The notes under the pieces are model-generated. The model did not search any database. It had not been told where the DNA came from and was given only the letters and a program-made list of their open reading frames with translations. Below are positions 7,698 to 48,513 of a stretch of 64,000 nt of DNA, piece by piece. Source of the DNA: Candidatus Woesebacteria bacterium. GTDB taxonomy: Bacteria; Patescibacteriota; Microgenomatia; UBA8517. Position numbers and translations under genes: made by a program. Every line of letters begins with the position of its first letter. Position 1 is the first letter of the stretch. The stretch spans positions 867,141 through 931,140 of the forward strand of contig CP065002.1 of assembly GCA_016700095.1 (NCBI GenBank). The letters run 5' to 3'.

Positions 7698-10350
7698 TGG
7701 CTATAACAACAAGAGACAATGTCGTGTAATACAAACCCCATCTTACATACACTTGTGGTCCGAATTCCAGTTTATATGGAGAGTTTGATGGTTTTATATA
7801 AAAAGCATTTACCATGGAATACGCTGGGATGCTTAATGACGTACTTTGTAAATATGTAATTCTCCAACCGGGATGGAATGCGTCGGTAAATACAATCCAT
7901 CCGTTTTCTTTTTGTGGACTTAACTCATACACAGTCGGGTTTTTCTTTTCAAATTCTAGATTGCTAGATGCGGGTGGTTTATCATTTGTATCATCAGCAT
8001 ACACACGCACACCAAAGTGAGCCATGTAAGTCGAGGAATGGTTTTTTGCTTTATTCCATTCATCGGCGGTAATAAGTGCGACTGTATTAACAGAATTTAT
8101 TCCACCTAGATTTGTAATCGTAAGTTTATTGTCACCATCAAATAGTTTAATGCCTTGTGTGAACCATCTGAATTGCGTCTCACCACTATCTTTATTAAAA
8201 GCTTCACTTACAATCTCACCTTGTTCATTGCCTATTTCATATCTTAATTTCGAATCCATGCCCCCCAAACTTCGTATCGCAAGAATATAACTGGCATCCT
8301 GTACTTCGCCAAAATTAACGACAATTTTTTCACCAATTTTTTCTGAGAGAAATGATCCCAGACGATAATCAAAAGTTTTTGTTTTAATGCCTCGAATTAA
8401 TAACTGGTATTTAAAATCTAAATATTTATCATTATTAAAATACGCCCATTCACTCGCAAATTTTTTAGGGTCAACATAATCCTTTTGTAGAAAAGTCATT
8501 GTAAAATCATCCTCGTTGGTTCCATTAAAAATAATGGTTGCGCTTTCTGAAGCAATTTTATCCAGCAAAAGCGGATTCCACAGACCGTCTTCGAAATACG
8601 CGTTGATTTTGTTAGGCAAACCATCATCGCCAAACTCGGTTTCAATCTCAGGTCCGACTACAGCCAGTAGTTCATCCGCCTTAAATATTCTTGGTACACT
8701 ATTATCAATTTTATAAAAGGAAATATCGTTACTGTCGCGTTCTTTTTTCAACTCAGTATTATTGTTTAGTGCCATTTGCAATCTGTTCCAATCTTTTTGT
8801 TCTTCTCCATTTAACTTATATGGATTTCTGTGATCTTTGGATAATACAAGATACTTAATTCCCAACAATCGATACCAAGCTATATATTTATCGGTTTGAT
8901 AAATGTAATTATATTTATCTGAACTTCCAACAGTCAGATTAGCCAGAGGTCGAAGATTAGGCATATCACTTGCATTTAAAGCTGGGTTGTTCTCGGTTTC
9001 AAAGGTCGAAGGATGTTTGTCCGGGAACCAGAGTGAGCGATAATATTCATGATCCTCACTTAATATGGTGTTTATTTCACTTAGTTCATCGGGGTAATTT
9101 CTTATCGACAAAACAAAATTCATATTCCCGAGCATCGCCGGCGCTACCAGGAAGAGTAGATAAATATACGCAAATAAAGTAATACTTTTACCAAGAAGCG
9201 TATGTTTTGACAACTTGTCGCAAATTGTAGTTAGAAAACTACCCATTGAAATTCCCGCAAGTAACATTACCGGAACAAAAAATTTACTGTTATCTCGAAA
9301 CGACTCACCAAACGGTAAATTCGTTACTGCAAACGAGTATATATTTCCCATTGGCGGAGTTGCCCCCTTAAGTAAGAAAATCAAAAATAGCAAGATAAGA
9401 ATGATTTTAAGTTCACGCTTATCTTTACTGCTAAACAAATTTCCAAAAACCGTAACAGGAATTAGTAAAAAATACCATGCAGGGTACGTGATTTCGCCAA
9501 AGATATTTTTATACCAATGAGGCTGATAGAAAAATATGCCGTTCACAAACGAAATAAAATTCAAATTGGTGACAAAGGAAGCTGAATTTTCAGGATGAAT
9601 TTTTACTAAAGGAATTATCCAATACGAATTAATACATATCCAAGGCAACACAATTAACAATAGATTTTTTATTATCAAACGCCATTTACCGGGTGCTTCG
9701 ATAAAACCCACAAGTAATGCAACAAAAAGAGCAATCAATGCGATCCGTGGATCGGCAATCGTATTTAGAGTGAGAACAAAAAGAGCAAGGAAATATTTTT
9801 TCGGGGATAATTTGGAAATAACGTTGGTTAGTGTCAGTATCGTGAATGGAAATATTCCATAAGAAAGTGCAACACCAACCTGACCACCATCAATTAGTAG
9901 TATGAAATATGTATTTAGTGTGTAAAACAACGAAGCAAAAAACCATACCAACGGTGGATACTTTAATTTTTTTGCAAGATAAATAGGCCCAATAAGTGAA
10001 AGGATGATTGCTGGGAAGAAAAATAATAAGTTAATGATTATATTGTTGGGCAAACCGAGGTATTTACCCATAATTCCATAGAGCATTAGGATTGGTTTAA
10101 TAAAAAGCCTCGGATCGATTGTTCCTAAATTACCATCTCTGTTTATCCAGGAATACGGTTCACTGAAAAGATCGGTAAACTCACGATTCGTAAAGTTGGG
10201 TGCATCACCCCACGACAAATCGGTGTGAATAATGAGGGGATAGAAAACGATAATAACAGGAATAAGTAAACCAATAATAAAAAACGCTACATCGGCGACC
10301 TTATAAGTCCCTGGTATATTAATGCGAATCTTGTCAGTTTTCTTTTGCAT
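7642..10350 (-). CDS. Giant polytopic membrane protein (902 aa), putative GT-C glycosyltransferase (AftD/YfhO-like architecture) with a large extracytoplasmic C-terminal domain
   Basis: About 14 TM helices in the first 420 aa, then a roughly 480-aa soluble region. The N-terminal loop carries a WGDAPNF...D-rich motif. Confidence 0.45.
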   Translation of the reverse strand: MQKKTDKIRINIPGTYKVADVAFFIIGLLIPVIIVFYPLIIHTDLSWGDAPNFTNREFTDLFSEPYSWINRDGNLGTIDPRLFIKPILMLYGIMGKYLGLPNNIIINLLFFFPAIILSLIGPIYLAKKLKYPPLVWFFASLFYTLNTYFILLIDGGQVGVALSYGIFPFTILTLTNVISKLSPKKYFLALFVLTLNTIADPRIALIALFVALLVGFIEAPGKWRLIIKNLLLIVLPWICINSYWIIPLVKIHPENSASFVTNLNFISFVNGIFFYQPHWYKNIFGEITYPAWYFLLIPVTVFGNLFSSKDKRELKIILILLFLIFLLKGATPPMGNIYSFAVTNLPFGESFRDNSKFFVPVMLLAGISMGSFLTTICDKLSKHTLLGKSITLFAYIYLLFLVAPAMLGNMNFVLSIRNYPDELSEINTILSEDHEYYRSLWFPDKHPSTFETENNPALNASDMPNLRPLANLTVGSSDKYNYIYQTDKYIAWYRLLGIKYLVLSKDHRNPYKLNGEEQKDWNRLQMALNNNTELKKERDSNDISFYKIDNSVPRIFKADELLAVVGPEIETEFGDDGLPNKINAYFEDGLWNPLLLDKIASESATIIFNGTNEDDFTMTFLQKDYVDPKKFASEWAYFNNDKYLDFKYQLLIRGIKTKTFDYRLGSFLSEKIGEKIVVNFGEVQDASYILAIRSLGGMDSKLRYEIGNEQGEIVSEAFNKDSGETQFRWFTQGIKLFDGDNKLTITNLGGINSVNTVALITADEWNKAKNHSSTYMAHFGVRVYADDTNDKPPASSNLEFEKKNPTVYELSPQKENGWIVFTDAFHPGWRITYLQSTSLSIPAYSMVNAFYIKPSNSPYKLEFGPQVYVRWGLYYTTLSLVVIAIVALWFSPEKKVQHDNKN

Positions 10351-10496
10351 GTAATGTTAATTTATAAATTGTTAATCCAAGCAAACCAAGGTAGAGGTAT
10401 TTTGATAATTGAATTGCCCGACCGGGGTGATGTGTGGCAAGAAAAAAACAAACTATAAATAGAATTACCGATGTTATACTTACTAATACACGTTTC
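10351..10496. promoter_or_regulatory. Divergent intergenic region between the 902-aa GT-C gene (minus) and the YfhO/GT39 pair (plus). Presumed bidirectional promoter.
   Basis: This is the only strand switch to plus for multi-gene transcription in the first 30 kb. AT-rich with TATAAT-like hexamers. No experimental support. Confidence 0.3.
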
Positions 10497-21106: not shown

Positions 21107-21574
21107 ATGAATAGTGATGTTTTTATCCATCCACTTTCGGATGTGAGGACAACCAACATTGGTTCAAAAACTAAAGTGTGGCAATTTTCAGTTATTCTTG
21201 AAGGGGCAGTTATCGGAAAAAACTGTAATATCAATTGTCAAACCTTCATCGAAAACGACGTCGTTATCGGCGACAATGTCACGGTAAAATGCGGTGTTTA
21301 TATCTGGGATGGAATACGGTTGAAAGACAATGTCTTTATTGGCCCAAATGTCACTTTTACTAACGATAATTTTCCGAGATCGAAACAATACCCGGAAAAA
21401 TATTTACCGATAATCATAGAAAAAGGTGCTTCGGTCGGTGCAAACTCCACTATTCTCGGCAATATTACAATAGGGGCAAACGCAATGATTGGAGCAGGTA
21501 GTGTGGTTACAAAAAACGTACCACAAAATCAACTTTGGATGGGAAGTCCGGCAAGATGTGTTAAAGAAATATGA
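21107..21574 (+). CDS. Left-handed beta-helix (hexapeptide-repeat) sugar N-acetyltransferase, FdtC/WxcM/PglD-like
   Basis: Repeating [LIV]GxN[VC]x[IV] hexapeptides ([50 protein letters not shown]). 155 aa. Confidence 0.7.
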
Positions 21575-22050
21575 ATATAAATATTGTTTACAACCACCTG
21601 ATTACCCTAAGAGCGAGAATAAGATCGCAGTTCTGGAAATTGTTTCTCAAAAGAATGGGAAAACATGTTGATATTATGGGGAATGTAAAAATCATGAGTC
21701 CGCAAAAAATATCAATAGGAAATAACGTGCTAGTAAATTCGGAAAGTAAATTAGGTGGGCAATGCGGTATCGAGATTGGAAATGATGTGTTGATTGGCTA
21801 CAACGTAAATATCGTTTCGCAAAATCATGCGTATGACGACAGGAACATACCAATTAAAAATCAAGGATTTTACGGACGGAAAATTGTAATTAAAGACGAC
21901 GTATGGATTGGTGCAAACGCCGTAATTCTTCCCGGTGTTACTCTTGGAAAAGGATCCATTGTGGGTGCCAACGCGGTTGTGACAAAAGATGTTGAACCTT
22001 TCACAATAGTGGGCGGAGTACCGGCAAAATTAATAAAACAAAGAATCTAG
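21571..22050 (+). CDS. Hexapeptide-repeat O-acetyltransferase (LacA/NodL/CysE-like)
   Basis: [33 protein letters not shown]...GGVPAKLI is the classic maltose/galactoside acetyltransferase C-terminal signature. ATGA overlap with the preceding acetyltransferase. Confidence 0.8.
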
Positions 22051-23350: not shown

Positions 23351-25321
23351 TTACATTACCAATTCTTGGATTATTGGACTGATGATTACATAGCTTGGAG
23401 TGAAATTATTCTGGCTTTGTAAGTATATATTTCTAAGCAAAGTTCCACCAGGCGGTATTATAAACTGAATATGACTCCCATTTTCTGAATTGTTTTCAAC
23501 TATCGCCTGAGCTTCTTTGGAGTCAAATATTGAACCAAACGTATCATACTCCCAAGATACATGTATTACGTTTTTCAGTATCGTGTTATCAAGTTTAACA
23601 ACTACACTCAAAGGTGCCATAGAATTTATATCATAACTTGAAAAATCGGCTTTTGTACGATTATCTACTTTGTCCCAATTGGGATCTATATTTAAACTCG
23701 TATCCCAGAGCAAACTCTCCCGCAAACGCCAGCTCGTGTTTACAACGGAGTCTGGAGTTACCATGAAAGAATAAATATTCTCAATAGGCAAATTTCTTTC
23801 CGTATAAATTGACTGTATACTCGACAAGTTCTCGGGGTAAATAATTTTATCTATCGAGACATCTAAATTGTAGGCAAACGCTGCCTCCGTAGATAGTTGT
23901 CCTACACGGGAAGCATCTCCAACGCTATATTGTAAATCTTTAAGCGATGCATCGGTAAAAATAATAATCGGTGTGTCTTCAGCTTCCACCTCTTGCCGGA
24001 CAGAATTGAACATACGTCTTGCAGTTACACTGTACTTGTCAACAAATTTATATTGAGTGCTAACTGCGTAATACAAGTGTAAAAATATCAAAATAAAAGC
24101 AATAATAGTTGTTAACGTTGTAACGTGTGATTTATTTTTTGTATCGGATAAGTACAATATGGTTATAAAAAGCGGTGCAACAAACGAAAGTGCCATCATA
24201 TAACGATAGTCACTTGATATGTAAAACTCCGGCTTAACCAGTATTAGACTTAAGGCAGCTCCTGCAAACATAGACAATATAATCAAGATTTGTTTCTTAT
24301 TTATTGAAAAAATAAAATTAAGAACTAAAAATATAAATAGGGCTAATCCAATCAGCGTAGATTCCAACACTACAACGTCTGATATTTTATCGAAAAACAA
24401 TTTCGCAGGCAAAAGATACAATATTATCGCTAATACACTGTACCTTTTAATCCTATTTGACATAAGTGAAAGTAAAATAATGTAAATAATTAGAGGTAGA
24501 AAATATGTCGACAACGACTCTAAATTATATTTTAAAATTGGGTTCGCCAAAAACTTCTGCTGGAGATCCGTCGGTACTATACTATTTGCCAAACTTGATA
24601 ATACCGACGAGACAATCGTGTATTTATCGGCTTTAAATATCGCATTCCCCGTGACTTCATACGTACCGTAATCAATCACATATGAAATCGGGTGAATGAA
24701 AAGCTGCATTAAAAACATGAATAAATAAACAGACGCATTGCGTACACTCTCCTTAACTTTCACCTTGTTAGAATACAATACGATAATTGTTAGTATTGGT
24801 ATTATAATTCCAGTAAACCGATGTGATGCTGACTCCAAGGTGGCAATGAAAAAAAGACAAGATAGTAAAATATCTTTTTTCTCTCGTAGTTTGTAATACC
24901 GAATTAAACTAGCAATTGATAGCAAATAAAAACTAAGTCCCAGCAGTACTCCCGCACCATCTCCGGCAAACATAAATAGCGATTGCTGTCCAGTATATCC
25001 GCTTGCAAATATAATGGTTAATAAATATATTTTATATTTCCCCAACTTTGCTATTTGGTGCAAGAGACAGAAAAGTGCATATACACAAAATGCAAAAAAT
25101 AACAGAGCAATAAGATGGTAATAAAATGAATTTTTCCCAAATAGAGAATTGATTATGTACACAATGTACGTATTTATATGATATGGAAAATCTGGGACAA
25201 TTTTTTCTTGTGCGAAATACAAATGAGTATAATCATCATTCCAAAAATACATCATGAGGGTCTGTCCATAAGAAATAATAATCGTACATATAATAAGAAT
25301 GTTGGGAATAAATTTTTTCAT
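23351..25321 (-). CDS. GT-C-like membrane glycosyltransferase, 'YFWxDD' subfamily (656 aa)
   Basis: YGQTLMMYFWNDDYTHLYF follows TM1. About 12 TM helices and a roughly 200-aa soluble C-terminus. Tandem paralog of 25318..27987. Confidence 0.45.
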   Translation of the reverse strand: MKKFIPNILIICTIIISYGQTLMMYFWNDDYTHLYFAQEKIVPDFPYHINTYIVYIINSLFGKNSFYYHLIALLFFAFCVYALFCLLHQIAKLGKYKIYLLTIIFASGYTGQQSLFMFAGDGAGVLLGLSFYLLSIASLIRYYKLREKKDILLSCLFFIATLESASHRFTGIIIPILTIIVLYSNKVKVKESVRNASVYLFMFLMQLFIHPISYVIDYGTYEVTGNAIFKADKYTIVSSVLSSLANSIVPTDLQQKFLANPILKYNLESLSTYFLPLIIYIILLSLMSNRIKRYSVLAIILYLLPAKLFFDKISDVVVLESTLIGLALFIFLVLNFIFSINKKQILIILSMFAGAALSLILVKPEFYISSDYRYMMALSFVAPLFITILYLSDTKNKSHVTTLTTIIAFILIFLHLYYAVSTQYKFVDKYSVTARRMFNSVRQEVEAEDTPIIIFTDASLKDLQYSVGDASRVGQLSTEAAFAYNLDVSIDKIIYPENLSSIQSIYTERNLPIENIYSFMVTPDSVVNTSWRLRESLLWDTSLNIDPNWDKVDNRTKADFSSYDINSMAPLSVVVKLDNTILKNVIHVSWEYDTFGSIFDSKEAQAIVENNSENGSHIQFIIPPGGTLLRNIYLQSQNNFTPSYVIISPIIQELVM

Positions 25322-27987
25322 TGTGAATCACTACTAAGTTCATCAATCATGTCGTTACTAATCAATTCATTGAGTGATAAACTTCTCACGCTTATATTTG
25401 AAATCTCGAAACTAATTGGGATAGAGAATTTGATGTTAAATCTATCAACAGAAGTACCTCCTGCAGGAATAACAATCTTGTACGTATGATATTTGCCATC
25501 TATAACAATCGGAAAACTACTGCTTTGTTTGTCTATATCTCCTTTATCCGTCTTCCAACTGATAGTCGCAAATGAAATTGGTTCAGCTTGTTCGTATAAA
25601 ATATCCCATTCATTTTTATTACTAGCAAGTGAAAGGGGATCGTCGTAATACGTATGCGCTTGAGCAAACGAAATTGAATTAAATCGATCTTCCACCACTT
25701 CAAACTCCAATAGAGATGGTGAATCGTCTGTTTGAGTTTTGCTGATGACCATTCGTACATATCGAGCATCAGTTGCGGCAAACTTTTCCACAATCTGTTC
25801 TACATTTTTTCTCTCAGGTCCATTTACAACTGATTTTCGAACTGACCAGTTTTTCCGGTCAACTGAAGTTTCTATGCTGTAAGTCACCGGTGCAAGCGAC
25901 GTTTTCCAATTCGTCCATATTACACTTCCAATTTTTTTAACTTTACCCAAATCAACAATCAATTCTTCGTGTCCTTTTTCATTCCAATAAATTCTGTGTC
26001 CTTGCCATGTAGTTGTAATATTTTTATCTACAGCATACCCAACTTCCCTAAATCTCCAATCAGACAGACTATTGCTTACTACTTCCGCATAATAATCGTT
26101 TCTAGCCTTGAGATACTCAAGTATCAAAAGCTTCTCTTTTAGGGAATATTTAATTGGTTTATAATTCGTTGGAGGTATTCCTTTGGCAGCAGAAATAGTA
26201 AGTTTTAACTCAACAGGTACCAACGGGATTGCCACCACATCACTTAATGATGTAAATACGGTGTTTTCCGACCCGTTATTGAGAAGTTCTCGCATTTTGT
26301 AAGTATTGTCTACTAGTCCATTTTTCCCGTAATAGTATGAATACAAATAGTCAATTTCCATGTCCCCATTTGCAATATATAAAACCGTTTCATTGAAGTC
26401 TGTTAAATGTCGCACGTCATATCTGTCAACATCATAATACATGGCAAGGGCAGTCGATTCCGGCATAGAACCTACCGAAAAAAAATCATAGAAGCGTTGA
26501 GGGTAAGGCGGTTCTAGAGACACGTCAAAATAAAATCCAGATCCTTTTTCAATATCAGGCACATATGTTAATAATTTAGTATAAAATTCTCTTGTAGTTT
26601 TACTGCGTGTTTCAACTAAATTAGCTTGATAAGTAAATCCGAAATAAAGGTGCATGGAAAGTATTCCTATTAAAAGACCCTTGCCTAAAAACGACTGTTT
26701 ACTTTTTTTGTTTTCCCCAAGCTTAATAATAGAAACAAATATTATTGCAAACCCAATCACTACATAACTAAAGTAGCGATGTGTTGTTCCCCATATAGCA
26801 CTTGGATACTGAACATAGTAACCAAATACTTGTGTCACAATTACAATAAAGGCAAAGAAAGCTACCTTGGACAGCTTTTTATTCTTGTGTATATTTTGAA
26901 TACAAATTGTAAAACTAAAGACAATAAACTCAATCCCTAGAGCTCCAGAAAATATATCTGCAATTTGCCGATACCAAAGGTAGTCTAATGAATAAAGAAA
27001 TAAGTTTAATATCATTCCCAAAAAAAGAATTCCAATCCCAATAATTTTCTTCTTTGTTGCCTCATGACACATCGCCAGTAGATAAAAAACGGAAAACAAA
27101 CCAAACGCAAAACCAGAAACTACAAAGGCTTGGTCTGAAACTATACGGGGTAAAACGAAGGTTAACAGTTTTTCTTGGAGTGGATATGCAAAAACAGAAT
27201 TACCAATATTTGCAAATAATGGCGCCAAAATTTCTACATTTCCTGCAACTAATTCATTGACTAAACTTACTAAACCCGGCCCACCGAATCCTTCATTGGT
27301 TAGATAACGAAAGTAGAATATAAACAAAAATGGAATCTGTCGAATACCATATTTTAAAAGTGATGTGACCTTTGAAATATTTACTAGAAACAGTGCATCT
27401 AAAACCACAATCGGGACAATAAGCGAGTGAGAACGAATAAATACAAACTCTGTTGCTGCCCAATAAAAAAAGACAGCGAGAAAATAATGAACTTTCTTTT
27501 TCTTTTTTGTAAACTTAACAATCTGTTCAAAAGTTAAGAACGCCAAAATAAGTCCAAAGTTAGTTTGCCATGAATTAATAACTCGAAACATAATGTCACT
27601 ACCTATATAACCTGCTGCAAATATAAGTGTCGAATAGTACGCATATTTTATTTCACCATACAATTCTCGGACAAATCGATGAAAGAAATAGGTTGCGATA
27701 ATATATGTGATAAAACCTATAAAAAAATATCCGAACGGGTCTTTGCCGAAAAGTGGAAAAAACGGAACAAACGGTGTAACTAAATATTTATATGCACCAT
27801 GGCCAATAATACCTTCTCCGAAACTCCCCGCGGCTCCTTCCGGGTTTTGAAGTTTAAAAATAAGAGCTGAATCGTCTTGCCAAAAGTACATTTGTAAAGT
27901 CTGTCCGTATGCAATCAGTACGACAATAATTACAAGAAAGATAAACGATAATTTACCCAAGCGAATGTTTTTAATTCTTTTTTTCAT
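25318..27987 (-). CDS. GT-C-like membrane glycosyltransferase, 'YFWxDD' subfamily (889 aa), with a C-terminal discoidin (F5/8 type C)-like carbohydrate-binding domain
   Basis: YGQTLQMYFWQDDSALIF follows TM1, with about 13 TM helices. In the C-terminal region (about nt 25700..26100) the segment WQGHRIYWNEKGHEELIVDLGKVKKIGSVIW...YSIETSVDRKNWS...ARYVRMVI...LLEFEV matches the discoidin-domain pattern. Confidence 0.5.
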   Translation of the reverse strand: MKKRIKNIRLGKLSFIFLVIIVVLIAYGQTLQMYFWQDDSALIFKLQNPEGAAGSFGEGIIGHGAYKYLVTPFVPFFPLFGKDPFGYFFIGFITYIIATYFFHRFVRELYGEIKYAYYSTLIFAAGYIGSDIMFRVINSWQTNFGLILAFLTFEQIVKFTKKKKKVHYFLAVFFYWAATEFVFIRSHSLIVPIVVLDALFLVNISKVTSLLKYGIRQIPFLFIFYFRYLTNEGFGGPGLVSLVNELVAGNVEILAPLFANIGNSVFAYPLQEKLLTFVLPRIVSDQAFVVSGFAFGLFSVFYLLAMCHEATKKKIIGIGILFLGMILNLFLYSLDYLWYRQIADIFSGALGIEFIVFSFTICIQNIHKNKKLSKVAFFAFIVIVTQVFGYYVQYPSAIWGTTHRYFSYVVIGFAIIFVSIIKLGENKKSKQSFLGKGLLIGILSMHLYFGFTYQANLVETRSKTTREFYTKLLTYVPDIEKGSGFYFDVSLEPPYPQRFYDFFSVGSMPESTALAMYYDVDRYDVRHLTDFNETVLYIANGDMEIDYLYSYYYGKNGLVDNTYKMRELLNNGSENTVFTSLSDVVAIPLVPVELKLTISAAKGIPPTNYKPIKYSLKEKLLILEYLKARNDYYAEVVSNSLSDWRFREVGYAVDKNITTTWQGHRIYWNEKGHEELIVDLGKVKKIGSVIWTNWKTSLAPVTYSIETSVDRKNWSVRKSVVNGPERKNVEQIVEKFAATDARYVRMVISKTQTDDSPSLLEFEVVEDRFNSISFAQAHTYYDDPLSLASNKNEWDILYEQAEPISFATISWKTDKGDIDKQSSSFPIVIDGKYHTYKIVIPAGGTSVDRFNIKFSIPISFEISNISVRSLSLNELISNDMIDELSSDSQ

Positions 27988-28918: not shown

Positions 28919-30994
28919 TTACAAATTCCCGTGACTATTTGGAAATACGATATCAGTATCTAATTTAATTGGATTTGGGGTCCATCCTCCAAAATCTTCG
29001 GATACATCCGCCTCAAACACTTCCAGTTTATCAAAATATACATCCGACTGTGATTCTTGGTATACACCAATACTCACAACAGCATAACTCGAATTTTTAG
29101 GTATAGCGTGTGCAAATTGTTGTTTGGTAAACTCACTACTTGTTATCCGCGGTGATATTCGAACCGCGGTTCTATTTTTACGTTCGGTCGCATCACTTGC
29201 ATTTTTAAAGTATTCAACAAAGACGAAACCATCTCTGGAGTTCAATCCTTCAAGTTTCGACACATGGGTTATCATTAATCCCTTTATATTATCTACACTA
29301 AAATAATTTGAGCTCCAGCTTCGAAAGTTAACTTTTTCATTTTTGTTAAAGGTAAACTCCAATAACAGATTTTTTACTCTCACATCCCTATCGGGAATTT
29401 TTACTACTACAAAATCAGACTCGGGTGCTAATGCAGGATTTGTAATCGAAAAAATCGAATAATCGGAATATTCTCGAATTACAAGTGCTGGATACGCCTC
29501 TTCAAGTAATTCTACCGGTTTGTTCCAGTATTTAAGAGAATTCATTGTCCCTTGGGACATCCACCAATAAAATTCATTTGTCATCCATTCTAGGTTTATC
29601 GCTACGAAGTCTGCATCATTAAATTCCTCCATACTATAATTATGTTTTTGATCAAACGGTAAACGTTCATAATTAACGCTATCAAAATTAACCGAGGAAT
29701 GTGCTGCTATCTTTGAACCCGGAGGTATATTTTCCTCGATCCATTTTTTAGTAATCAAATAGTTCCATTCCTGTCTATACTCATTTCCCACTACAACAGA
29801 TTTTGATATATTTTCAAACAGAGCTAGTCCAATTAGAGGAATAATAATTAATAAACCCACCTTTTTTGGAACTGATTTTGATATTTGTACTACAAATGCT
29901 GATGCAAAGATCATTAATAATGGAGTTACCGTAATAAAGTTTCTCGTGTAAAACCCTCCTCCAGTAAGAAATGTTATGACAATCAAAAAAGGTACAATCA
30001 CAGATAGCAGCATAAGCTTCTCTTTAAATCTGGTAAAAATACTTATTATTCCCAAAATTACGAGCACGCTTGTAACCCTACCCAAACCATAGTGGTACAA
30101 ATATGAATAAGGGAAAAAATCGAATTCATTTTTACCTGTTTTATATTTCAAAGATACATCTACTATCTGTTCTCTAAATTGCTCAAAGTGAATAAAGTGA
30201 TAAGGATTTATTATTAAAGTAATAACCATTATCGACAATCCTGCAATAAATATTTTTTTGTCAAACAAACAACCTATTAAAGCGCTTTTGTTTTTAAAAT
30301 GAAAATAAAAATGAGCTAAAAGTAAAGGTGGTATGGCGTAAACATGAAACTTTGTGGAAAAAGAAAGTCCAGCTCCAATTCCCGCTAAAAGATAACTCTT
30401 AATACTTGGTTTATCAATAATTCGATAGGTTAGTAATAGTGAAAGTAATAAAAAAAATGCATTATAAATATCTGGTAAAGCGAGGTGGCTGTTTAGAACT
30501 TGTCTGTAATTTACAGCTACAAACACAGATGATAACAATGCAACTTCTTTTGCAAACATTTTTTTTGCAAGTAAATAAGTTAACAAGACATTTCCAACAC
30601 CAACTGATGCCGCAATAATTCTACCCCAAGTAAGAACATGTATTTCTCTAATCCCTAATATACTGAGTTGTAAGATTTTATTAGATTCTTCGGTTGTTAG
30701 TGGAAAGTTATACAATCCGTCGACGAACATGCCAATGTTTGATATGTAAAACTTCCCCCAAGAAAATGGTATAAATATTAATTTAAAAAATAGAGCGTTT
30801 AGTATCGGTATTAAACCCGGATATGCATAGTGAAGGGAATAGCCGTTTGCATCTAGCGTACCATCAATCAATATATAAATCCCTTGAGAATAACTCATTC
30901 CTTCGTCAGCATGATATGGTGGATAACCGGGATAAATACCAGTAAATCGCAAATAAGCTGCAGCAAAAAGAATTGCTAGTAATATTTTTTTCAT
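28919..30994 (-). CDS. GT-C glycosyltransferase, ArnT/PMT (GT39/PMT_2)-like (691 aa), with a roughly 300-aa extracytoplasmic C-terminal domain
   Basis: LRFTGIYPGYPPYHADEGMSYSQ (DE motif after TM1), with about 11 TM helices. Confidence 0.65.
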   Translation of the reverse strand: MKKILLAILFAAAYLRFTGIYPGYPPYHADEGMSYSQGIYILIDGTLDANGYSLHYAYPGLIPILNALFFKLIFIPFSWGKFYISNIGMFVDGLYNFPLTTEESNKILQLSILGIREIHVLTWGRIIAASVGVGNVLLTYLLAKKMFAKEVALLSSVFVAVNYRQVLNSHLALPDIYNAFFLLLSLLLTYRIIDKPSIKSYLLAGIGAGLSFSTKFHVYAIPPLLLAHFYFHFKNKSALIGCLFDKKIFIAGLSIMVITLIINPYHFIHFEQFREQIVDVSLKYKTGKNEFDFFPYSYLYHYGLGRVTSVLVILGIISIFTRFKEKLMLLSVIVPFLIVITFLTGGGFYTRNFITVTPLLMIFASAFVVQISKSVPKKVGLLIIIPLIGLALFENISKSVVVGNEYRQEWNYLITKKWIEENIPPGSKIAAHSSVNFDSVNYERLPFDQKHNYSMEEFNDADFVAINLEWMTNEFYWWMSQGTMNSLKYWNKPVELLEEAYPALVIREYSDYSIFSITNPALAPESDFVVVKIPDRDVRVKNLLLEFTFNKNEKVNFRSWSSNYFSVDNIKGLMITHVSKLEGLNSRDGFVFVEYFKNASDATERKNRTAVRISPRITSSEFTKQQFAHAIPKNSSYAVVSIGVYQESQSDVYFDKLEVFEADVSEDFGGWTPNPIKLDTDIVFPNSHGNL

Positions 30995-33614: not shown

Positions 33615-34712
33615 CTACTCCATATCCTTCTCAACTCTTCGGAAATCATTTATAAATTTATTAAAATCCACTTTTCTTGAAAGATTGTTAAATATAAACT
33701 GATCGTTTACTTTTCTTTGTTGTTGAATTATTTTTCGTTTCTCTAGTGTCACTTTAATATTTCTTATATTATAACCAATGGCATCGATTATCATAACAGC
33801 GCTATTCTTTTGTCCTCTTAGGAAGAACACGAATGCGATTCCCAGTGAAATAAATAAATGTATTGGTAATATGTAAATCAAGTTTATTAATTCAAGATTT
33901 TTAATAAGTGACATAATTCTGTTTTTGTAATAATCGTAATTTATCTTCACAACATCCAATCTTTTTATGGTAAAGCCGACTTTATGTTCAATTGTTGCGT
34001 TAGGGAAATAGACTACTTTCCAACCAGCAAGCCATACACGCCAGCAAAAATCACTTTCTTCGAAGTAAGATACAAAATCATTATCAAAAAGCCCAATTTC
34101 ATCAATTACACTTTTGCGAACAAGCATACATGCCCCCTTGCACGAAAATACTTTAGTTTCCTTATTAAATTCTTTACTGTCTTTTTGCCCAAATCCCCAA
34201 TGTTCGAGAAAACCTATACGTGTAAAGAAACTTCCTGCATTATCCAAGTAACTGATTCTACCCTGCCCTTCCGTAACTATTGGCGAAGGAGGTGCTTGCC
34301 CGTCCGTAGGTTTTGGCGAAGGAGGGTCCATCATAAATATCTTGGGTTGAATTACTCCCAATTTTTTGTCCTTTTCCATGCGAGATACCAACTGGTCCAA
34401 CAAGTCAGGTGAAACAACCGTGTCGTTATTTAGCAGTAACACATAATCTCCTTTGGCAAACTTAATCGCCTGATTGTTAGCAGGAGCAAAACCGAGGTTC
34501 ACTTTATTCACCAATAGGCGGTAGTTGGTAGTTGGTAGAATTATTTTTTTGGCTAATTTTTCACTTCCATCGCTACTTCCATTATCAACAACTATCAATT
34601 CCCAATTTTTATATTTAAGTTTAGAAAGCGAAGTTAAGCAATTTTTAAACACTTCCCCACCATTCCAGTTGACGATAATTATTGAAACTTCAGGAACTAT
34701 TCTAATTCTCAT
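33615..34712 (-). CDS. GT2 glycosyltransferase (WbbL/rhamnosyltransferase-like) with an internal Pro-rich insertion and a C-terminal TM
   Basis: VSIIIVNWNGGE...LIVVDNGSSDGS...LLLNNDTVV (DXD-like). Insertion PPSPKPTDGQAPPSPIVTEGQG, encoded by a short tandem DNA repeat at about 34260..34330. Confidence 0.75.
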   Translation of the reverse strand: MRIRIVPEVSIIIVNWNGGEVFKNCLTSLSKLKYKNWELIVVDNGSSDGSEKLAKKIILPTTNYRLLVNKVNLGFAPANNQAIKFAKGDYVLLLNNDTVVSPDLLDQLVSRMEKDKKLGVIQPKIFMMDPPSPKPTDGQAPPSPIVTEGQGRISYLDNAGSFFTRIGFLEHWGFGQKDSKEFNKETKVFSCKGACMLVRKSVIDEIGLFDNDFVSYFEESDFCWRVWLAGWKVVYFPNATIEHKVGFTIKRLDVVKINYDYYKNRIMSLIKNLELINLIYILPIHLFISLGIAFVFFLRGQKNSAVMIIDAIGYNIRNIKVTLEKRKIIQQQRKVNDQFIFNNLSRKVDFNKFINDFRRVEKDME

Positions 34713-35749: not shown

Positions 35750-36688
35750 ATGACAAAAGCACGTAAATTATCTTTTGTAATTCCTGCAAAAAATGAAGAG
35801 GGATCTATTGAGATACTCTATCAAGAAATTATTAGCGTTGTTAAAAACAAAAAGTATAACTATGAAATAGTATTTATTGACGATGGATCAACGGATAAAA
35901 CTTTTGAAAATTTCACAAAACTTAAAAAAGGCGATCCTTGTGTAAAAGTAATTAAACTAAGAGGAAACTGGGGCAAGGCGGTAGCTATGCAAGCAGGTTT
36001 TACTCATGCAACCGGTGACTTAATATTTACTTTGGATGCTGATCTTCAAGACAACCCCAAAGAGATACCAAAGTTTATTGAAAAAATTGACGAAGGATAT
36101 GACCTCGTCGTTGGTTGGAAAAAAGAACGACATGATCCTTTGAGCAAATTAATATCAACAAGATTATTCAACGGAACGGTTAAATTACTCACAGGACTCA
36201 AAATTCATGATGTAAATTGTGGGTTCAAAGCATACAAAAAGGAAGTTATAAATGATCTACCTTTGTATGGTGATCTATTTCGTTTAATTCCAGTAATCGC
36301 TCAAAAACAAAACTACAAAGTTGGAGAAGTAATTGTCGAACATCGAAAAAGAAAACACGGTAAATCTAAATTTGGCTTAGAGCGTAGTTATAAAGGTATG
36401 CTTGATCTTCTGACGGTAGTATTTTTAACAGGTTATCTCAAACGCCCTGGGCACTTTTTTGGTGGGTTAGGCTTTTTATCTTTTTTTGGAGGATTTCTCG
36501 TCGGAATGTATATCACTTTTCTTCGTTTTACAACCGGGTCAATTCAATATAGACAGCCACTTCTTTTCCTGGGAATCTTGCTTATGGTAATTGGAGTACA
36601 ATTAGTAACCACCGGTTTGTTGGCAGAGCTTACATTACATTTAAATCAGAAATCTTCTGTAGCAAATAAAACCGAAACAATTCTCTAG
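35750..36688 (+). CDS. Membrane-anchored GT2 polyprenol-phosphate sugar synthase (GtrB/ArnC/CsbB/DPM1-like)
   Basis: LSFVIPAKNEEGSI...VFIDDGSTDKT...LRGNWGKAVAMQAGF...FTLDADLQDNPKEIP, plus two C-terminal TM helices. Confidence 0.8.
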   Translation: MTKARKLSFVIPAKNEEGSIEILYQEIISVVKNKKYNYEIVFIDDGSTDKTFENFTKLKKGDPCVKVIKLRGNWGKAVAMQAGFTHATGDLIFTLDADLQDNPKEIPKFIEKIDEGYDLVVGWKKERHDPLSKLISTRLFNGTVKLLTGLKIHDVNCGFKAYKKEVINDLPLYGDLFRLIPVIAQKQNYKVGEVIVEHRKRKHGKSKFGLERSYKGMLDLLTVVFLTGYLKRPGHFFGGLGFLSFFGGFLVGMYITFLRFTTGSIQYRQPLLFLGILLMVIGVQLVTTGLLAELTLHLNQKSSVANKTETIL

Positions 36689-38773
36689 TTACTTATATAT
36701 TTTTACTTCCACCTTATCTATTGTACTCAAGCATTGGTCAATTGGACTCATGACAATACGAGCAAATCTAGTCTCATTGCCTATAAATGGAATGACGATA
36801 TTTTTGTCAGTAGGATAGAATCCCATAAGCGGTACACTCCAATCTTCTTTGGGCATAGTCCCAGGTAAACGTTGCCAATTTGTATTGTCTGTAGAAATTT
36901 GAACATAACCATGCTCTATATCCAGACATCGTGCGTCATCGTACGAAATACTAATTTTAGCTAAATCAACTATCTTTCCGAGATCAACAACAAACCCTTG
37001 ATCTGAATATTCGTATGTAAAACCATAATAGTCTGAAATTGACGAGTATTTCTCGGTTCGATATTTTGCTGTGTTTTCCCACACTTTTAATATCGATGCT
37101 CCATCAACATCTATTGAGTAAATTGGGTGTAATCCCAAATTAAGATATCTGTCGTGAAACGAAGTTAATTCAGTTCCTTGGTACGTCAATGCAATTATAT
37201 ATTCTCCCTCTTGAAGGATCCCGCTTCTGTAAGAATTTGAAAGTCTTATATCAGGTCGTATCCAAATGAGAGGTATGTTGGGGATAAGTTCACGAGCGTA
37301 AGCGAGCTTAGTCCCATGAGGTGTACTTTTATTTATCCATGATATACCTTCCCTATACGCTACGCCAAAACTATTTCCAGCAGCCGGAAAATTTATAGAT
37401 CTGGCACCAATATGTCCTCCTATTAGTGAATTGAAATAAACATTTTCGTTCGGGTGAAGAGAAATTAATCTAAATATATGGAAAGTATAACCAGATATTA
37501 ATACTATCCAAAATAGTGATCGGAGTATTTTTTGCTTACTTACCAGGTTGTAAATCGTCAAAGCACCAATACCGCACAATATTGATAAAGGCGCAACATA
37601 CTCCATTATCTGACGGACTCCACCATAAATATTTGTTCCCGGGGCAGTAACTCTTGCAATTGGAACTATCAACCAAAGAACAACCAGAAAATAAAATCCA
37701 TTATTTCGATTTCGTAAATCACATATAGCCTTTGTTAATCCCAGTGCCGATAGAATAAGAACGATTATCGGGGTTGAGAACACTATCCACAACATGGGGT
37801 ATAGATTAATTCCACCAAAGGCAATGAATCGTTTGTCGAAAGAGTCCGTAAGTCCAATTTCATGATAGAAATTCAATACGGTTTTGATATTAGACAAAGG
37901 ATCTAGCCATAAAAATGGCCATAGTGCAATAAAGATAAATAATGCCAGAATGGGAATACAAAACAGAGTCATTATAAGCGTTTTGTTTTGTAAAAGTATT
38001 TTTTTAATTTCACTACGCCTGGGATACAATAGTAGAATCATCCAGGGCAATACGATGAATGGTAAAAAAAATGCATTAAACTTTGTTCCCAAAGCTAGTC
38101 CGGACGTTATTCCTGCAATCAACAACAATCGCTTTTTCTTTCTGAGAACTCCATACCACACAAGCATAAGTGTTAATAAAATATATACCGCTTCTGGAAT
38201 ATCTTTCTCATTATTAAAATGAGCTTCGGACCAATACAGTGGATACGACAACAAAGTTAAGGCAGATATAAATCCTGCAAGATATGAATTTGTTGTATCA
38301 GAAATCCAATAAAATAAAAAAGCGACCGACATTGAAAAAAGTAATATTGAATATACACGATATGAATCAATATCATTAATTATTCCCCATTTCTGAAATA
38401 GAAAGTAGTTAAATAGCGACGAAATAATATCGCTTGCAGGAGGATGTCCACCATCGTTTTCCATAAAATAATTAAAATCAACTCCAGCATTTTGATATAA
38501 ACTAACACGAGCTACATCTTCTCGCGATTTGTCGATTGGGCTAAAAGCTAGTTTGTCCGGATCTTGCCAGTATTTCGTAAATGTCGGCAAATTCGAGAAA
38601 TCACGAGAACCAGTTAAGAAATAATTCAGATATGCTTGTCCGCGCGGCAAGTGATTGATAGTATCCCAGTTAATTCCATAGTGTGGGAGCGTAACCAATC
38701 CAAGAATAAACACTAGAACAAAAATAAATAAAGTGTACAACCTAATATTGCGAAGTTTTTGGCTTTTAATCAT
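36689..38773 (-). CDS. GT-C-like membrane glycosyltransferase (PMT_2-like, 694 aa) with a C-terminal discoidin-like domain
   Basis: About 12 TM helices. The N-terminal loop HYGINWDTINHLPRGQAY carries a degenerate acidic motif. The C-terminal roughly 115 aa (about nt 36689..37040), DLGKIVDLAKISISY...NWQRLP...TRFARIVM, resembles the discoidin pattern seen in 25318..27987. Confidence 0.5.
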   Translation of the reverse strand: MIKSQKLRNIRLYTLFIFVLVFILGLVTLPHYGINWDTINHLPRGQAYLNYFLTGSRDFSNLPTFTKYWQDPDKLAFSPIDKSREDVARVSLYQNAGVDFNYFMENDGGHPPASDIISSLFNYFLFQKWGIINDIDSYRVYSILLFSMSVAFLFYWISDTTNSYLAGFISALTLLSYPLYWSEAHFNNEKDIPEAVYILLTLMLVWYGVLRKKKRLLLIAGITSGLALGTKFNAFFLPFIVLPWMILLLYPRRSEIKKILLQNKTLIMTLFCIPILALFIFIALWPFLWLDPLSNIKTVLNFYHEIGLTDSFDKRFIAFGGINLYPMLWIVFSTPIIVLILSALGLTKAICDLRNRNNGFYFLVVLWLIVPIARVTAPGTNIYGGVRQIMEYVAPLSILCGIGALTIYNLVSKQKILRSLFWIVLISGYTFHIFRLISLHPNENVYFNSLIGGHIGARSINFPAAGNSFGVAYREGISWINKSTPHGTKLAYARELIPNIPLIWIRPDIRLSNSYRSGILQEGEYIIALTYQGTELTSFHDRYLNLGLHPIYSIDVDGASILKVWENTAKYRTEKYSSISDYYGFTYEYSDQGFVVDLGKIVDLAKISISYDDARCLDIEHGYVQISTDNTNWQRLPGTMPKEDWSVPLMGFYPTDKNIVIPFIGNETRFARIVMSPIDQCLSTIDKVEVKIYK

Positions 38774-45533: not shown

Positions 45534-46400
45534 CTAAGTTATTATCAGTATAACACCACCAAACATTATGACTGCACCGACAAGTTTATTTGCAATGTAC
45601 GTTTCATGAAAGAAATACCAACCAAATAAAGTATTGAATATTATCGCTAGTTTGAAAATTGCCGTTACCAAACCAAGGTTTTGCATACTAAACGCTAAAT
45701 AGGCACATGTTTGACCAACAGCCCCCAGTATCCCAATAAGTAAATATGTTTTTTTGTCCTTCGCTATACTAACCAAAGGACGTACCTTGTTTTTTATCAG
45801 TAACAAAGAAAGAATGAGTGTAGAAATAATTAATCCTACAAAAGAAGCAAAAGGGGGAACAGCAGGATAGGTGTTCTGAATGGCAATTTTTTCAAATATC
45901 GGAGTAACGCTCCATATTAGGTATGCAAGTAGCGCAAGTCGGACACCTTTTTCATTAAAAGTTTCCATAAAAGATGAAATAACATTTTTGTAGTTTTTTT
46001 GCCGCAGAAGATATGTCCCCACGACAATAAATATAATTCCTAAAATGTCTCGTCCGCCTAGCTTTTCTTTTAGCAAAAGATAAGAGACTATGGCAGTAAA
46101 TGCCGGATTATAAGCAGACATTGAACTTACAAGTGACAGATCAGTTGTTTTTAGAGCTTTATAAACCAATATCGCCGCGAGTGTTCCAAGGGTAGAACTA
46201 ATTAGGATACTTACAATAAAGATGTGATTAATAAAGGGGATTTGATATTTAATAATAATTATCAAAAAAAGAAATAGTATTACAAGTAACTGTGATACGA
46301 ACAAATAAACTCTCTCGTCGGTTGCACGTAAAATCTTTTTGGCGAATACGTTAGTAACCGATGAAGTTAGTGCAAAGGATATTGAGTATAAAAACCACAT
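45534..46400 (-). CDS. EamA/DMT-superfamily 10-TM transporter
   Basis: 288 aa with two repeated 5-TM halves. Composition is typical of EamA domains. Confidence 0.6.
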   Translation of the reverse strand: MWFLYSISFALTSSVTNVFAKKILRATDERVYLFVSQLLVILFLFLIIIIKYQIPFINHIFIVSILISSTLGTLAAILVYKALKTTDLSLVSSMSAYNPAFTAIVSYLLLKEKLGGRDILGIIFIVVGTYLLRQKNYKNVISSFMETFNEKGVRLALLAYLIWSVTPIFEKIAIQNTYPAVPPFASFVGLIISTLILSLLLIKNKVRPLVSIAKDKKTYLLIGILGAVGQTCAYLAFSMQNLGLVTAIFKLAIIFNTLFGWYFFHETYIANKLVGAVIMFGGVILIIT

Positions 46401-46430: not shown

Positions 46431-47213
46431 TTATTTTTTATCATAATAATGTAGTATTTTTAGTTTGTTATAAACAGCCAAGGTGTCCCACGCCATTTTG
46501 AATGGCGAGTTGGGATTAAATATGGGAAAAAATTGGATTCTACTTTTACCTACATTAAAGTTTAGCTCGATCGGTGCTTCGTAAATTCTTGTATATCCCA
46601 TGTGGTTTGCAAGAGCCAGCATTTCAATGTCCATGGCAAATCTATCAATTGATAGTTTGGGGAGAATTTTTTTAATGACTTCTTTTTTAAATATTTTTAT
46701 CCCGCTTTGGGTGTCTGTCAGAGATAAACCAAAAAGTAATTTAATACCGAAAGAATATCCGACACTTAGTATCCTCCTTAATAACGGGTAATCAAGTTTG
46801 GACGCAGGGTGTCGTTTACTGCCGACAATTACATCTGCATCGTACCATTCCATATGAGCGAGTAACATCATAATTCCCTTTTCTTTGATGTCGCGACCTG
46901 CATCCATGAAAGATATCAAATCTCCATTCGCTTCTTTCATACCGGTACGGACAGCATACCCCTTGCCCCTATTTTCTTTATAACTAATAAACTTGAGGTT
47001 CGAATAATGAAGTTTTTTTACCTCCGCAGAGGTGTTATCAAACTGGCCATCTTCAACGCAGATTATTTCAAAGTCGTATTTCTCCGGTAACCCTTGTTTT
47101 AATGTTTTAATCAATATTTCTAGATCCGTTTTGATAGTTTTCCCCTCCTTGTAGGAAGGAACCACAATTGAAACTAGTGTCTTTGTACTTTTCTTCATAC
47201 TACGTTTTAACAT
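46431..47213 (-). CDS. GT2, DPM1/GtrB-like glycosyltransferase (soluble)
   Basis: VSIVVPSYKEGKTI...ICVEDGQFDNT...ENRGKGYAVRTG...FMDAGRD. Confidence 0.7.
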   Translation of the reverse strand: MLKRSMKKSTKTLVSIVVPSYKEGKTIKTDLEILIKTLKQGLPEKYDFEIICVEDGQFDNTSAEVKKLHYSNLKFISYKENRGKGYAVRTGMKEANGDLISFMDAGRDIKEKGIMMLLAHMEWYDADVIVGSKRHPASKLDYPLLRRILSVGYSFGIKLLFGLSLTDTQSGIKIFKKEVIKKILPKLSIDRFAMDIEMLALANHMGYTRIYEAPIELNFNVGKSRIQFFPIFNPNSPFKMAWDTLAVYNKLKILHYYDKK

Positions 47214-48465
47214 AGTTTAAACGCTTTAATTCATTGTAACCCAGGTATACAAATAATACTAAAAGTGTAAAGCCCATAAGTATTGTATTCACATATAAAA
47301 CTTCTCTTATCGTAGAATGAACATTCCAGAGTACAAATATTTGAACGATTGAAGTGACCAATGGAAACATCACTACTTGCGTCCGGTGGATCGACAGTAA
47401 GAAATTTACAATTAAGCTTGCAAGGGTATAAAAAGTAATAAATAAACCCATCCAAACAAGTTCCGGCGCAACAATAAGATAATCCTTTCCATACAAAAGT
47501 CCAATTGCCAGGTCGGGCAGTAAATAGTAGAACACCAAAACCAAAGACGATAATAAAAAGACCGCAGAGACACTTAGATAAAAGGTTGTTCTATAATTCT
47601 CTCCCTTTGAGCGTTTACCTGCGACAATCGGAAACATAACTGAAGCGACTGGTTGCGTTGCAAAAAATATAATTTTCCCCAACATGGAAAGAGCAGCATA
47701 ATACCCTGCAATCGGATTTTCCGGACCGAAGAAATGTTTTATTATAATTAAATCAACGGTAAATATTGATGTAAATGCCATAGCTTGCAGGAGAACAGGG
47801 AAAGCAAATTTAATAATAGGATAGATATTGTAGTCTAATGAGGATTTTTCCGATATTTCCTTTTTGATGACAATTTCAGAATAATAGTATGCCATCACGG
47901 AAGACATAACTATTGCAAAAGTAGCTCCGGGAACTTTGAGTCCAAAGAAAACCAGGACGATACCTAAAAATAACTTCGCCGTACTTGAAATCGAATCGGA
48001 AACAACCACACCTGTAAATTTTAATATTCCCTGAAGGAGCGCTTTGTTTACAATTGTTAACAACATAAAATAAACAATCGGTGCTATAAAAATAAGACTA
48101 TAAAATTCGCCCAAGTGTAAAAAATTCTTCAACGGATAGGCAGATAGAAGCATAACAACACTGGCAATTATCGAAAATCTTTTAAGTAATTTTTTTAAAG
48201 TAAAATATATGTGATCTCTTTCTGATTTGCTTTTGGCTGATGATATAAATTTAACAATCGCAAAACTAGTGGAGGTTGGAATAATTCCGACAATATAAAG
48301 GATAGAGAAAATTATCGCCAAGTTTCCGTAATCAACCGGTCCAAGCACTCTTCCCATCAGAAGATGATAAATATAATTAATTCCGTTATTACCCAAACTT
48401 CCCCCAACCATCAAAAGACTACCAAGAAGCAAAGGGTTTCTAATTAAGTCTTTTGCCTTTTTCAT
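47200..48465 (-). CDS. Wzx/MurJ-like flippase (MOP superfamily)
   Basis: About 12 TM helices. Likely start MKKAKDLIRN at 48465; the ORF-track start at 48513 abuts the gmd stop. Confidence 0.6.
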   Translation of the reverse strand: MKKAKDLIRNPLLLGSLLMVGGSLGNNGINYIYHLLMGRVLGPVDYGNLAIIFSILYIVGIIPTSTSFAIVKFISSAKSKSERDHIYFTLKKLLKRFSIIASVVMLLSAYPLKNFLHLGEFYSLIFIAPIVYFMLLTIVNKALLQGILKFTGVVVSDSISSTAKLFLGIVLVFFGLKVPGATFAIVMSSVMAYYYSEIVIKKEISEKSSLDYNIYPIIKFAFPVLLQAMAFTSIFTVDLIIIKHFFGPENPIAGYYAALSMLGKIIFFATQPVASVMFPIVAGKRSKGENYRTTFYLSVSAVFLLSSLVLVFYYLLPDLAIGLLYGKDYLIVAPELVWMGLFITFYTLASLIVNFLLSIHRTQVVMFPLVTSIVQIFVLWNVHSTIREVLYVNTILMGFTLLVLFVYLGYNELKRLNYVKT

Positions 48466-48513
48466 ACAATCTTGTACGATTATACTGCAGAAAAATGAAG
48501 CGATACAGCGCAA

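Follow-up and report, generated by a model that had tools for sequence, protein, structure and literature searches.

Several glycosyltransferases of the GT-C class carry a carbohydrate-binding module (CBM) in addition to their membrane core. In EmbA, EmbB and EmbC, in AftD and in ORF12, the founding member of family GT136, these modules bind the acceptor polysaccharide (PMC11127046). The combination of a GT-C enzyme with an extracytoplasmic CBM is an established architecture, and the protein described here is one more case, not a surprising one. It is encoded in a stretch of 64,000 nucleotides (hereafter the window; contig CP065002.1 of assembly GCA_016700095.1, positions 867,141 to 931,140) of the genome of Candidatus Woesebacteria bacterium. 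According to the list of open reading frames (ORFs), Pfam, and an AlphaFold2 model compared by Foldseek, the gene at 36689..38773 (-), stop codon included, encodes a 694-residue GT39/ArnT-like GT-C glycosyltransferase. Its last 120 residues form a divergent module of the discoidin (F5/8 type C, CBM32) superfamily. In the literature collection searched, no paper on this particular combination turned up, nor one on the 694-residue family.

The 694-residue frame, the C-terminal sequence quoted for it and its GT-C nature, all proposed in a first-pass annotation made from the letters of the DNA, were confirmed. Pfam PMT_2 matches residues 133-276 with 32.3 bits, above the gathering cut-off of 26.1. 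Structure prediction yielded a GT-C core followed by a beta-sandwich tail (mean residue confidence, pLDDT, 90; predicted TM-score, pTM, 0.88). In a Foldseek search the model matched STT3 (6s7o), ArnT (5f15, 5ezm), AglB, PglB, DPY19 and Pmt4 with E values of 1e-7 to 7e-5 and a probability of 1.0, those for STT3, ArnT and PglB lying near 1e-7; Pmt1-Pmt2 was also among the fold matches. A comparison of the full family profile with PDB sequences gave nothing meaningful (E>0.2) and no significant match to a protein O-mannosyltransferase (PMT), and it is the fold comparison alone that ties the family to ArnT and STT3. Structurally, the enzyme falls into the ArnT/PMT/STT3 class of GT-C glycosyltransferases.

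The model and the analysis of invariant residues draw on 47 family members. The helix map derived from the model assigns residues 1-440 (37454..38773, (-)) to a multi-helix membrane core, in which the block Y32, G33, N35, W36, D37, I39, N40, H41, R44 and G45 is invariant. D37, the codon of which was checked (38663..38665, (-)), belongs to the invariant motif YGxNWDxINH of the first outward loop, just behind the first transmembrane helix (residues 2-31). From the position of the corresponding residue in GT-C enzymes, D37 is likely the catalytic base. Other invariant charged residues of the core are E183, H185, K190, D191, K231 and R374. The stretch that links the last membrane helix to the tail (residues 441-574; 37052..37453, (-)) is, by the secondary structure of the model, a mixed alpha/beta domain; it is highly conserved, with invariant R474, N499, R516, S517, G523, E524 and D541. 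The N-terminus rich in lysine and arginine and the ArnT/PglB-like fold suggest that this domain is extracytoplasmic.

The family has at least 644 matches; among the 120 listed, 95-100% of the query is covered at 42-73% identity. The matches listed stem mostly from metagenome assemblies; the few with a named source belong to Woesebacteria, Daviesbacteria, the "Patescibacteria group" and a single bin under the name Woesearchaeota. The family is widespread in the Microgenomates of the candidate phyla radiation (CPR). The bin labelled 'Candidatus Woesearchaeota archaeon' contributes a close, full-length homologue with 48% identity (P0033), whose archaeal label reflects either mis-binning or a transfer between CPR bacteria and DPANN archaea. 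NCBI names the protein identical to that of the window 'glycosyltransferase family 39 protein [Candidatus Woesebacteria bacterium]'. The database label of the family is "glycosyltransferase family 39 / PMT_2", and among the 120 matches listed a single one (P0012) has a precomputed PF00754 match.

Profiles and the structural model characterize the tail, residues 575-694 (36692..37051, (-)), as a divergent beta-sandwich of the discoidin/F5/8 type C/CBM32 type. The upper limit of 37040 given in the first-pass annotation is one base out of frame, which is trivial, and the tail it described is real. When 42 orthologue tails were scanned singly against Pfam, 36 matched PF00754 (E<1, best 4.7e-7) and 34 matched PF22633; beyond these two, no family was matched by more than one tail. 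The tail profile found five weak matches among the PDB sequences (4a42, 4txw, 4lpl, 3hnm and 4zrx), all of them CBM32 or F5/8 modules. A hidden Markov model (HMM) of the tail searched against 1.84 billion representative proteins gave 120 matches, and those outside the family that were checked proved to be F5/8 proteins, with E values down to 8e-14. Matches spanning most of the profile nearly all end at the C-terminus of proteins of about 650-720 residues or of shorter, fragment-like proteins. The remaining matches are long proteins with several partial matches, five of which were checked by Pfam and are genuine multi-domain F5/8 proteins (PF00754, E 1e-32 to 1e-114). Because these independent lines, namely the orthologue scans, the PDB profile matches and the tail-HMM search, converge, the tail is assigned to the discoidin/CBM32 superfamily as a divergent, trimmed member. 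The term "lectin-like", used for it in the first-pass annotation, holds as a statement on fold and homology.

One of the proteins, P0219 (400 residues), has the tail domain at residues 181-290 followed by a methyltransferase domain at residues 317-391. Two of the loci described below, L003 and L004, have a methyltransferase gene after the GT-C gene, on the same strand. The arrangement in P0219 could come from read-through, from two genes called as one or from a genuine fusion.

Residues 575-694 are modelled as a compact beta-sandwich, a jelly-roll with the fold of the galactose-binding domain. Six positions of the tail are invariant and seven nearly so, among them C616 and C681, which are the only invariant ones of the five cysteines of the protein. 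The two codons (36926..36928 and 36731..36733) delimit a span of the gene from 36731 to 36928 (-), and the cysteines likely form a disulfide. The class of the fold and the invariant cysteine pair argue for an extracytoplasmic site of the tail. Relative to a canonical F5/8 domain the tail contains an inserted, family-specific conserved loop, RLPGTMPKEDWSVPLMGFYPTD (residues 635-656; 36806..36871, (-)), with the consensus RLPGxMPxEDWxxxxxGxQP. P641 and P654 are invariant, and G638, W645 and Q653 are conserved in at least 90% of the sequences. In the models this loop has the lowest confidence, with a pLDDT of 42 when the tail was modelled alone and of 66-73 in the full protein. On the strength of their conservation, the loop residues W633, W645 and Q653 may be considered no more than candidates for sugar binding.

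The window contains a second discoidin domain. It is a canonical F5/8 type C (CBM32) domain (25720..26067, (-); PF00754, E 3.9e-11), and it occupies residues 641-756 of an 889-residue membrane protein taken from the ORF list (25318..27987, (-)). It had been described as a C-terminal module, which is incorrect, as the domain is internal and 133 residues come after residue 756. The 889-residue family comprises 93 matches with 24-51% identity, 92 of which have PF00754, and the domain was present in all 35 homologues tested. The family profile matches the solved CBM32 modules 2j7m and 2j1a with an E value of 1.1e-10, and NCBI gives the protein, like those family members that have a name, the designation 'discoidin domain-containing protein'. 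Its description as a GT-C enzyme is unproven. Neither Pfam nor NCBIfam gave a GT-C match for the window protein, NCBIfam has no model for either of the two large membrane proteins, and the family profile found no sequence match in the PDB outside the CBM32 region. PMT_2 was matched by one of the 35 homologues (3.1e-5), and an invariant D38-D39 pair close to the N-terminus would fit a GT-C enzyme.

As the first-pass annotation had supposed, the two discoidin regions align beyond chance. A BLASTP alignment of the tail with the domain of the 889-residue protein is marginal (22% identity over 92 columns, E=0.03) and was not relied on. The Smith-Waterman score was 49, as compared to 27 +/- 4.6 for shuffled sequences (z=4.8), and was reached by 2 of 2000 shuffles. 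The profile of the 42 orthologue tails matches residues 671-751 of the 889-residue protein and agrees in register with the pairwise alignment (670-749), with E=2.5e-6 by HMMER in a single comparison and, by hhalign against the domain, a probability of 87% at E=3.9e-6. When the whole 694- and 889-residue family profiles were aligned by hhalign, the discoidin region was the sole match (93%, E=3.2e-7). Opposite the loop of residues 635-656, the alignments to the domain of the 889-residue protein have a 9-residue gap.

The reading of the 694-residue protein as an enzyme that uses a lipid-linked donor is prompted by its neighbour, a convergent gene for a 312-residue GT2 glycosyltransferase of the ArnC/GtrB/PgfS type (35750..36688, (+)) identified by Pfam and NCBIfam. 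Glycos_transf_2 matches at 8.5e-34, and the NCBIfam models of ArnC (7.8e-51; positions 4-292 of 316) and PgfS (4.3e-37) match over nearly their whole length, both below the equivalog cut-offs. The sequence ends with two hydrophobic segments. These features are the signature of polyprenyl-phosphate glycosyltransferases, and the protein likely makes the lipid-linked donor. The stop codons of the GT2 gene (ending at 36688) and the GT-C gene (ending at 36689) abut without an intergenic base (36686..36691), which leaves no room for separate terminators. Five loci from other genomes (L001, L003, L004, L006 and L007) were compared over 5-10 kb around the 694-family gene. In all five an orthologue of the 312-residue GT2 (61-65% identity) lies convergent to the GT-C orthologue, adjacent to it or within about 2 kb. 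This pairing, here and at all five loci, indirectly supports the use of a polyprenyl-phosphate-linked donor by the GT-C enzyme.

An orthologue of a further GT2 gene, encoding 365 residues (GT2_365; 33615..34712, (-)), is likewise present at all five loci, and the upstream genes for a GT4 enzyme, a DegT-type aminotransferase and a 4,6-dehydratase-like protein at two to three of them. The aminotransferase of the cluster is matched best by the PseC model (4.3e-74), a hint of an amino-dideoxy sugar, and also by ArnB (7.6e-56). The 365-residue GT2 has a low-complexity insert rich in proline, serine and glycine, PPSPKPTDGQAPPSPIVTEGQG, at about residues 130-155 in the middle of its catalytic domain. 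In the window the genes between 33615 and 45532 are ordered GT4, DUF5667, 4,6-dehydratase-like, DegT aminotransferase, GT4, methyltransferase, GT-C, reversed ArnC-like GT2, GT2 and GT2, an order that is partly conserved across distant Microgenomates and complete in L006 and L007.

These data are best read as a system with a lipid-linked donor, of the GtrB/GtrC, ArnC/ArnT or CsbB/YfhO type. In such a system the ArnC/GtrB-like GT2 would attach a sugar to polyprenyl phosphate on the cytoplasmic side of the membrane, and this sugar may be an amino-deoxy sugar made by the products of the conserved upstream genes, the 4,6-dehydratase-like protein and the DegT-type aminotransferase. The lipid-linked sugar would then be flipped across the membrane and be transferred by the GT-C core, with D37 as the likely base, to an acceptor at the cell surface. 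The tail would hold the acceptor, most likely a glycan or a glycoconjugate, near the active site, and its binding would either raise the local concentration of the acceptor or set the site of modification, as with the CBMs of EmbC, AftD and the GT136 enzyme ORF12. With moderate confidence we favour the view that the 694-residue protein is a polyprenyl-phosphate-sugar-dependent GT-C enzyme whose CBM32/discoidin-like tail binds the acceptor glycan. A more specific proposal, conceivable but doubtful, is an Arn-like three-component pathway of surface modification, in which an ArnT-like enzyme has been re-targeted from lipid A to a CPR-specific envelope polysaccharide or glycoprotein, and the tail with its Pro/Trp loop recognises this polymer. 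The parts of the cluster that would serve it are the 4,6-dehydratase-like protein, the DegT aminotransferase, the GT4 enzyme, the methyltransferase, the GT-C enzyme with its tail, the ArnC-like GT2 and the further GT2 enzymes.

Several observations speak against the reading that we favour. The canonical domain of the 889-residue protein passes the F5/8 gathering cut-off with 43.6 bits, but the tail of the window protein does not: against a cut-off of 28.2 it scores 14.6 bits (E 0.038) within the whole protein and 18.5 bits alone. The TM-scores of the tail in Foldseek, about 0.5, indicate a trimmed, divergent version of the fold, and its 120 residues are few compared to 130-160 in the full fold. 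Its identity to any solved CBM32 is low, 12-20%. To the CBM32 modules of glycoside hydrolases, such as those of Clostridium perfringens GH84C (2j1a), NanJ (2v72), GH31 (4lpl) and GH89 (4a42), which have 126-142 residues, it is 13-17%, and no sugar-binding residues of the solved CBM32 structures could be mapped on it. The most conserved part of the tail is the family-specific loop modelled with low confidence, and any binding site of the tail might differ from that of CBM32. Furthermore, EmbC has a CBM that is important to it, but the CBM of ORF12 is dispensable for activity under the conditions tested (PMC11127046). Finally, a GtrA-type flippase was sought beside the GT2/GT-C pair, and no flippase gene was identified there. 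Small ORFs at 21107..22050 were considered as such a flippase and turned out to be hexapeptide acyltransferases; only two flippase candidates were found across the window, one of the EamA family (45534..46400) and one that is Wzx-like (47200..48513), neither of which is adjacent to the pair.

The galactose-binding-like fold also binds proteins, as in APC10/DOC, IFT25 and muskelin, and membranes, as in the C2 domains of factors V and VIII, and all of these are among the structural matches of the tail. The tail might hence recognise a membrane or a lipid-linked substrate, as factor V/VIII C2 does, or a partner protein, as DOC/APC10 does, and so position the enzyme or build a complex. We regard this as unlikely, as the best sequence-level matches of the tail are all bacterial carbohydrate-binding F5/8/CBM32 modules and none is a C2 or DOC domain, the gene belongs to a conserved cluster for glycan synthesis, and all characterised extra beta-sandwiches on GT-C enzymes bind glycan (PMC11127046). 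Less probable still is a mere structural cap, a generic jelly-roll that stabilises the enzyme and whose discoidin likeness is a relic or the result of convergence. The sub-threshold Pfam score, the TM-scores and the shortness of the tail would fit such a cap, and PglB, ArnT and similar GT-C enzymes have periplasmic domains that are not lectins. Convergence is, however, unlikely because independent sequence methods all indicate one superfamily (PF00754 in 36 of 42 tails, 93% in hhalign, F5/8 matches down to 8e-14), and the invariance of surface-loop residues and of the cysteine pair across 42-73% identity argues for more than the constraints on a scaffold.

A further question is whether the tail and the discoidin domain of the 889-residue protein were acquired separately. 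The first-pass annotation had spoken of two independent fusions to different GT-C backbones. The backbones do differ: an hhalign comparison of the membrane cores of the two families detected no homology (probability <1%), for which reason the idea that the proteins are diverged paralogues was dropped; of the two backbones, the 694-residue one is the one shown to be GT-C. A 691-residue PMT_2 protein (28919..30994), also considered as a paralogue with the same tail, shares a 63-residue match in the membrane region (E 0.003) and no match in the tail. The two genes share the 64-kb glycan island, with 8.7 kb between them, and the discoidin region is the sole part common to both proteins, so that one might think of a module passed between them by recombination within the island. 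This is very improbable. The domains are 22% identical and differ in the family-specific loop of about 9 residues and in the cysteine pair; one is terminal and the other internal; each is conserved with its own backbone over identities of 42-73% and 24-51%, respectively; the tail type is almost confined to the backbone of about 650-720 residues; and in the five other genomes no 889-family gene was found in the 5-10 kb compared on account of the 694-family gene. Because the backbones are unrelated, the modules of low identity and differently placed, and the tail type nearly restricted to its own backbone, the independence of the fusions, as judged from sequence comparison, is well supported.

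That the fusions are functional, that is, under selection, follows from the conservation of each of them across its own large family in the Microgenomates. Their co-occurrence in one locus, the original argument, is not what shows it; in the five other genomes the pairing was not seen within the 5-10 kb compared. With 8.7 kb between the genes in the window, "one locus" is also a loose expression.

The gene of the 694-residue protein is part of a very large envelope-glycan island. The window also holds many GT2, GT4, methyltransferase and sugar-nucleotide genes. Nine further large membrane ORFs have an at least weak GT-C-type Pfam match (PMT_2/PMT, GT-C_AftD or YfhO), five of them above the cut-off; they are the ORFs at 10434, 12490, 15081 (an AftD-like GT-C), 18022, 28919, 57907, 59556, 61322 and 25318, the last by way of one homologue only. 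Between 7642 and 63148 the density of large polytopic membrane ORFs is unusually high, and two of them, with 902 residues (7642..10350) and 656 residues (23351..25321), have no Pfam match.

The 656-residue ORF lies just downstream of that of the 889-residue protein, and the two (23351..27987, (-)) overlap by 4 nucleotides (25318..25321). In their membrane regions the two proteins are distantly related tandem paralogues, with 21% identity over 559 columns (E 7e-16), and have an N-terminal YGQTLxMYFWxDD motif in common; the 656-residue copy has no F5/8 domain. Both proteins end in beta-rich regions; a single local alignment of these, weak and not significant, contains a short W...D..G ... PxGGT motif. 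Residues 757-889 of the larger protein (25318..25719, (-)), about 133 residues, have no Pfam assignment. Two homologues have a faint match (E 0.037) to PF24607, the third carbohydrate-binding module of AftD, and the region may be a second, unrecognised binding module.

What the data add is that a widespread ArnT/PMT-like enzyme of the Microgenomates has a cryptic CBM32-like module, a tail overlooked by automated annotation in nearly all family members. A tail of the carbohydrate-binding type points to a glycan or a glycoconjugate as the acceptor, as opposed to a bare protein or lipid. As a soluble fragment of 120 residues, the tail could be expressed and used to fish for the surface polymer of CPR organisms that cannot be cultured, and if the Arn-like re-targeting is true, the tail would be a ready-made probe for an uncharacterised surface glycan. 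The view of how CBM-bearing GT-C enzymes work is left unchanged.

Eukaryotic PMTs also bear a lectin-like luminal module. The 694-residue protein resembles the PMTs of family GT39, eukaryotic and actinobacterial, in its PMT_2 match, its NCBI name and its fold matches to Pmt4 and Pmt1-Pmt2. In contrast to its C-terminal discoidin fold, the MIR module of the eukaryotic PMTs is a beta-trefoil inserted in a loop, and, unlike the case of the PMTs, nothing found here points to a protein acceptor. The CBM32 modules of the glycoside hydrolases belong to secreted enzymes, whereas the tail is part of a biosynthetic membrane enzyme and has its conserved 22-residue Pro/Trp-rich loop and a cysteine pair of its own.

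The likeness to the Arn pathway extends over several components. ArnT is among the best structural matches of the 694-residue protein (5f15, E 2.8e-7), the neighbouring GT2 best matches ArnC, and the cluster includes an aminotransferase of the DegT/ArnB class. All NCBIfam scores, however, fall far short of the equivalog cut-offs, so that none of the proteins is an orthologue of the Arn enzymes. ArnT itself, the acceptor of which is the lipid A phosphate, has no discoidin tail. Patescibacteria are reported to lack lipopolysaccharide, and lipid A seems an unlikely acceptor of the 694-residue enzyme.

The closest counterparts in architecture are the mycobacterial EmbA, EmbB, EmbC and AftD and ORF12 of Citrobacter youngae (GT136). 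By analogy, the 694-residue protein would combine, as they do, a multi-helix GT-C core, a polyprenyl-phosphate donor and an extracytoplasmic beta-sandwich module. No sequence relationship to these families was found; the core is PMT_2/ArnT-like, and its module is of the F5/8 type C/CBM32 class whereas the CBM of ORF12 is described as immunoglobulin-like (PMC11127046). The host is a Patescibacterium, and the donor system is not a pentofuranose one, because no enzyme dependent on phosphoribosyl pyrophosphate (PRPP) was seen. ORF12 likewise carries its CBM at the C-terminus and works with a GT2-type donor synthase in a three-component system (PMC11127046).

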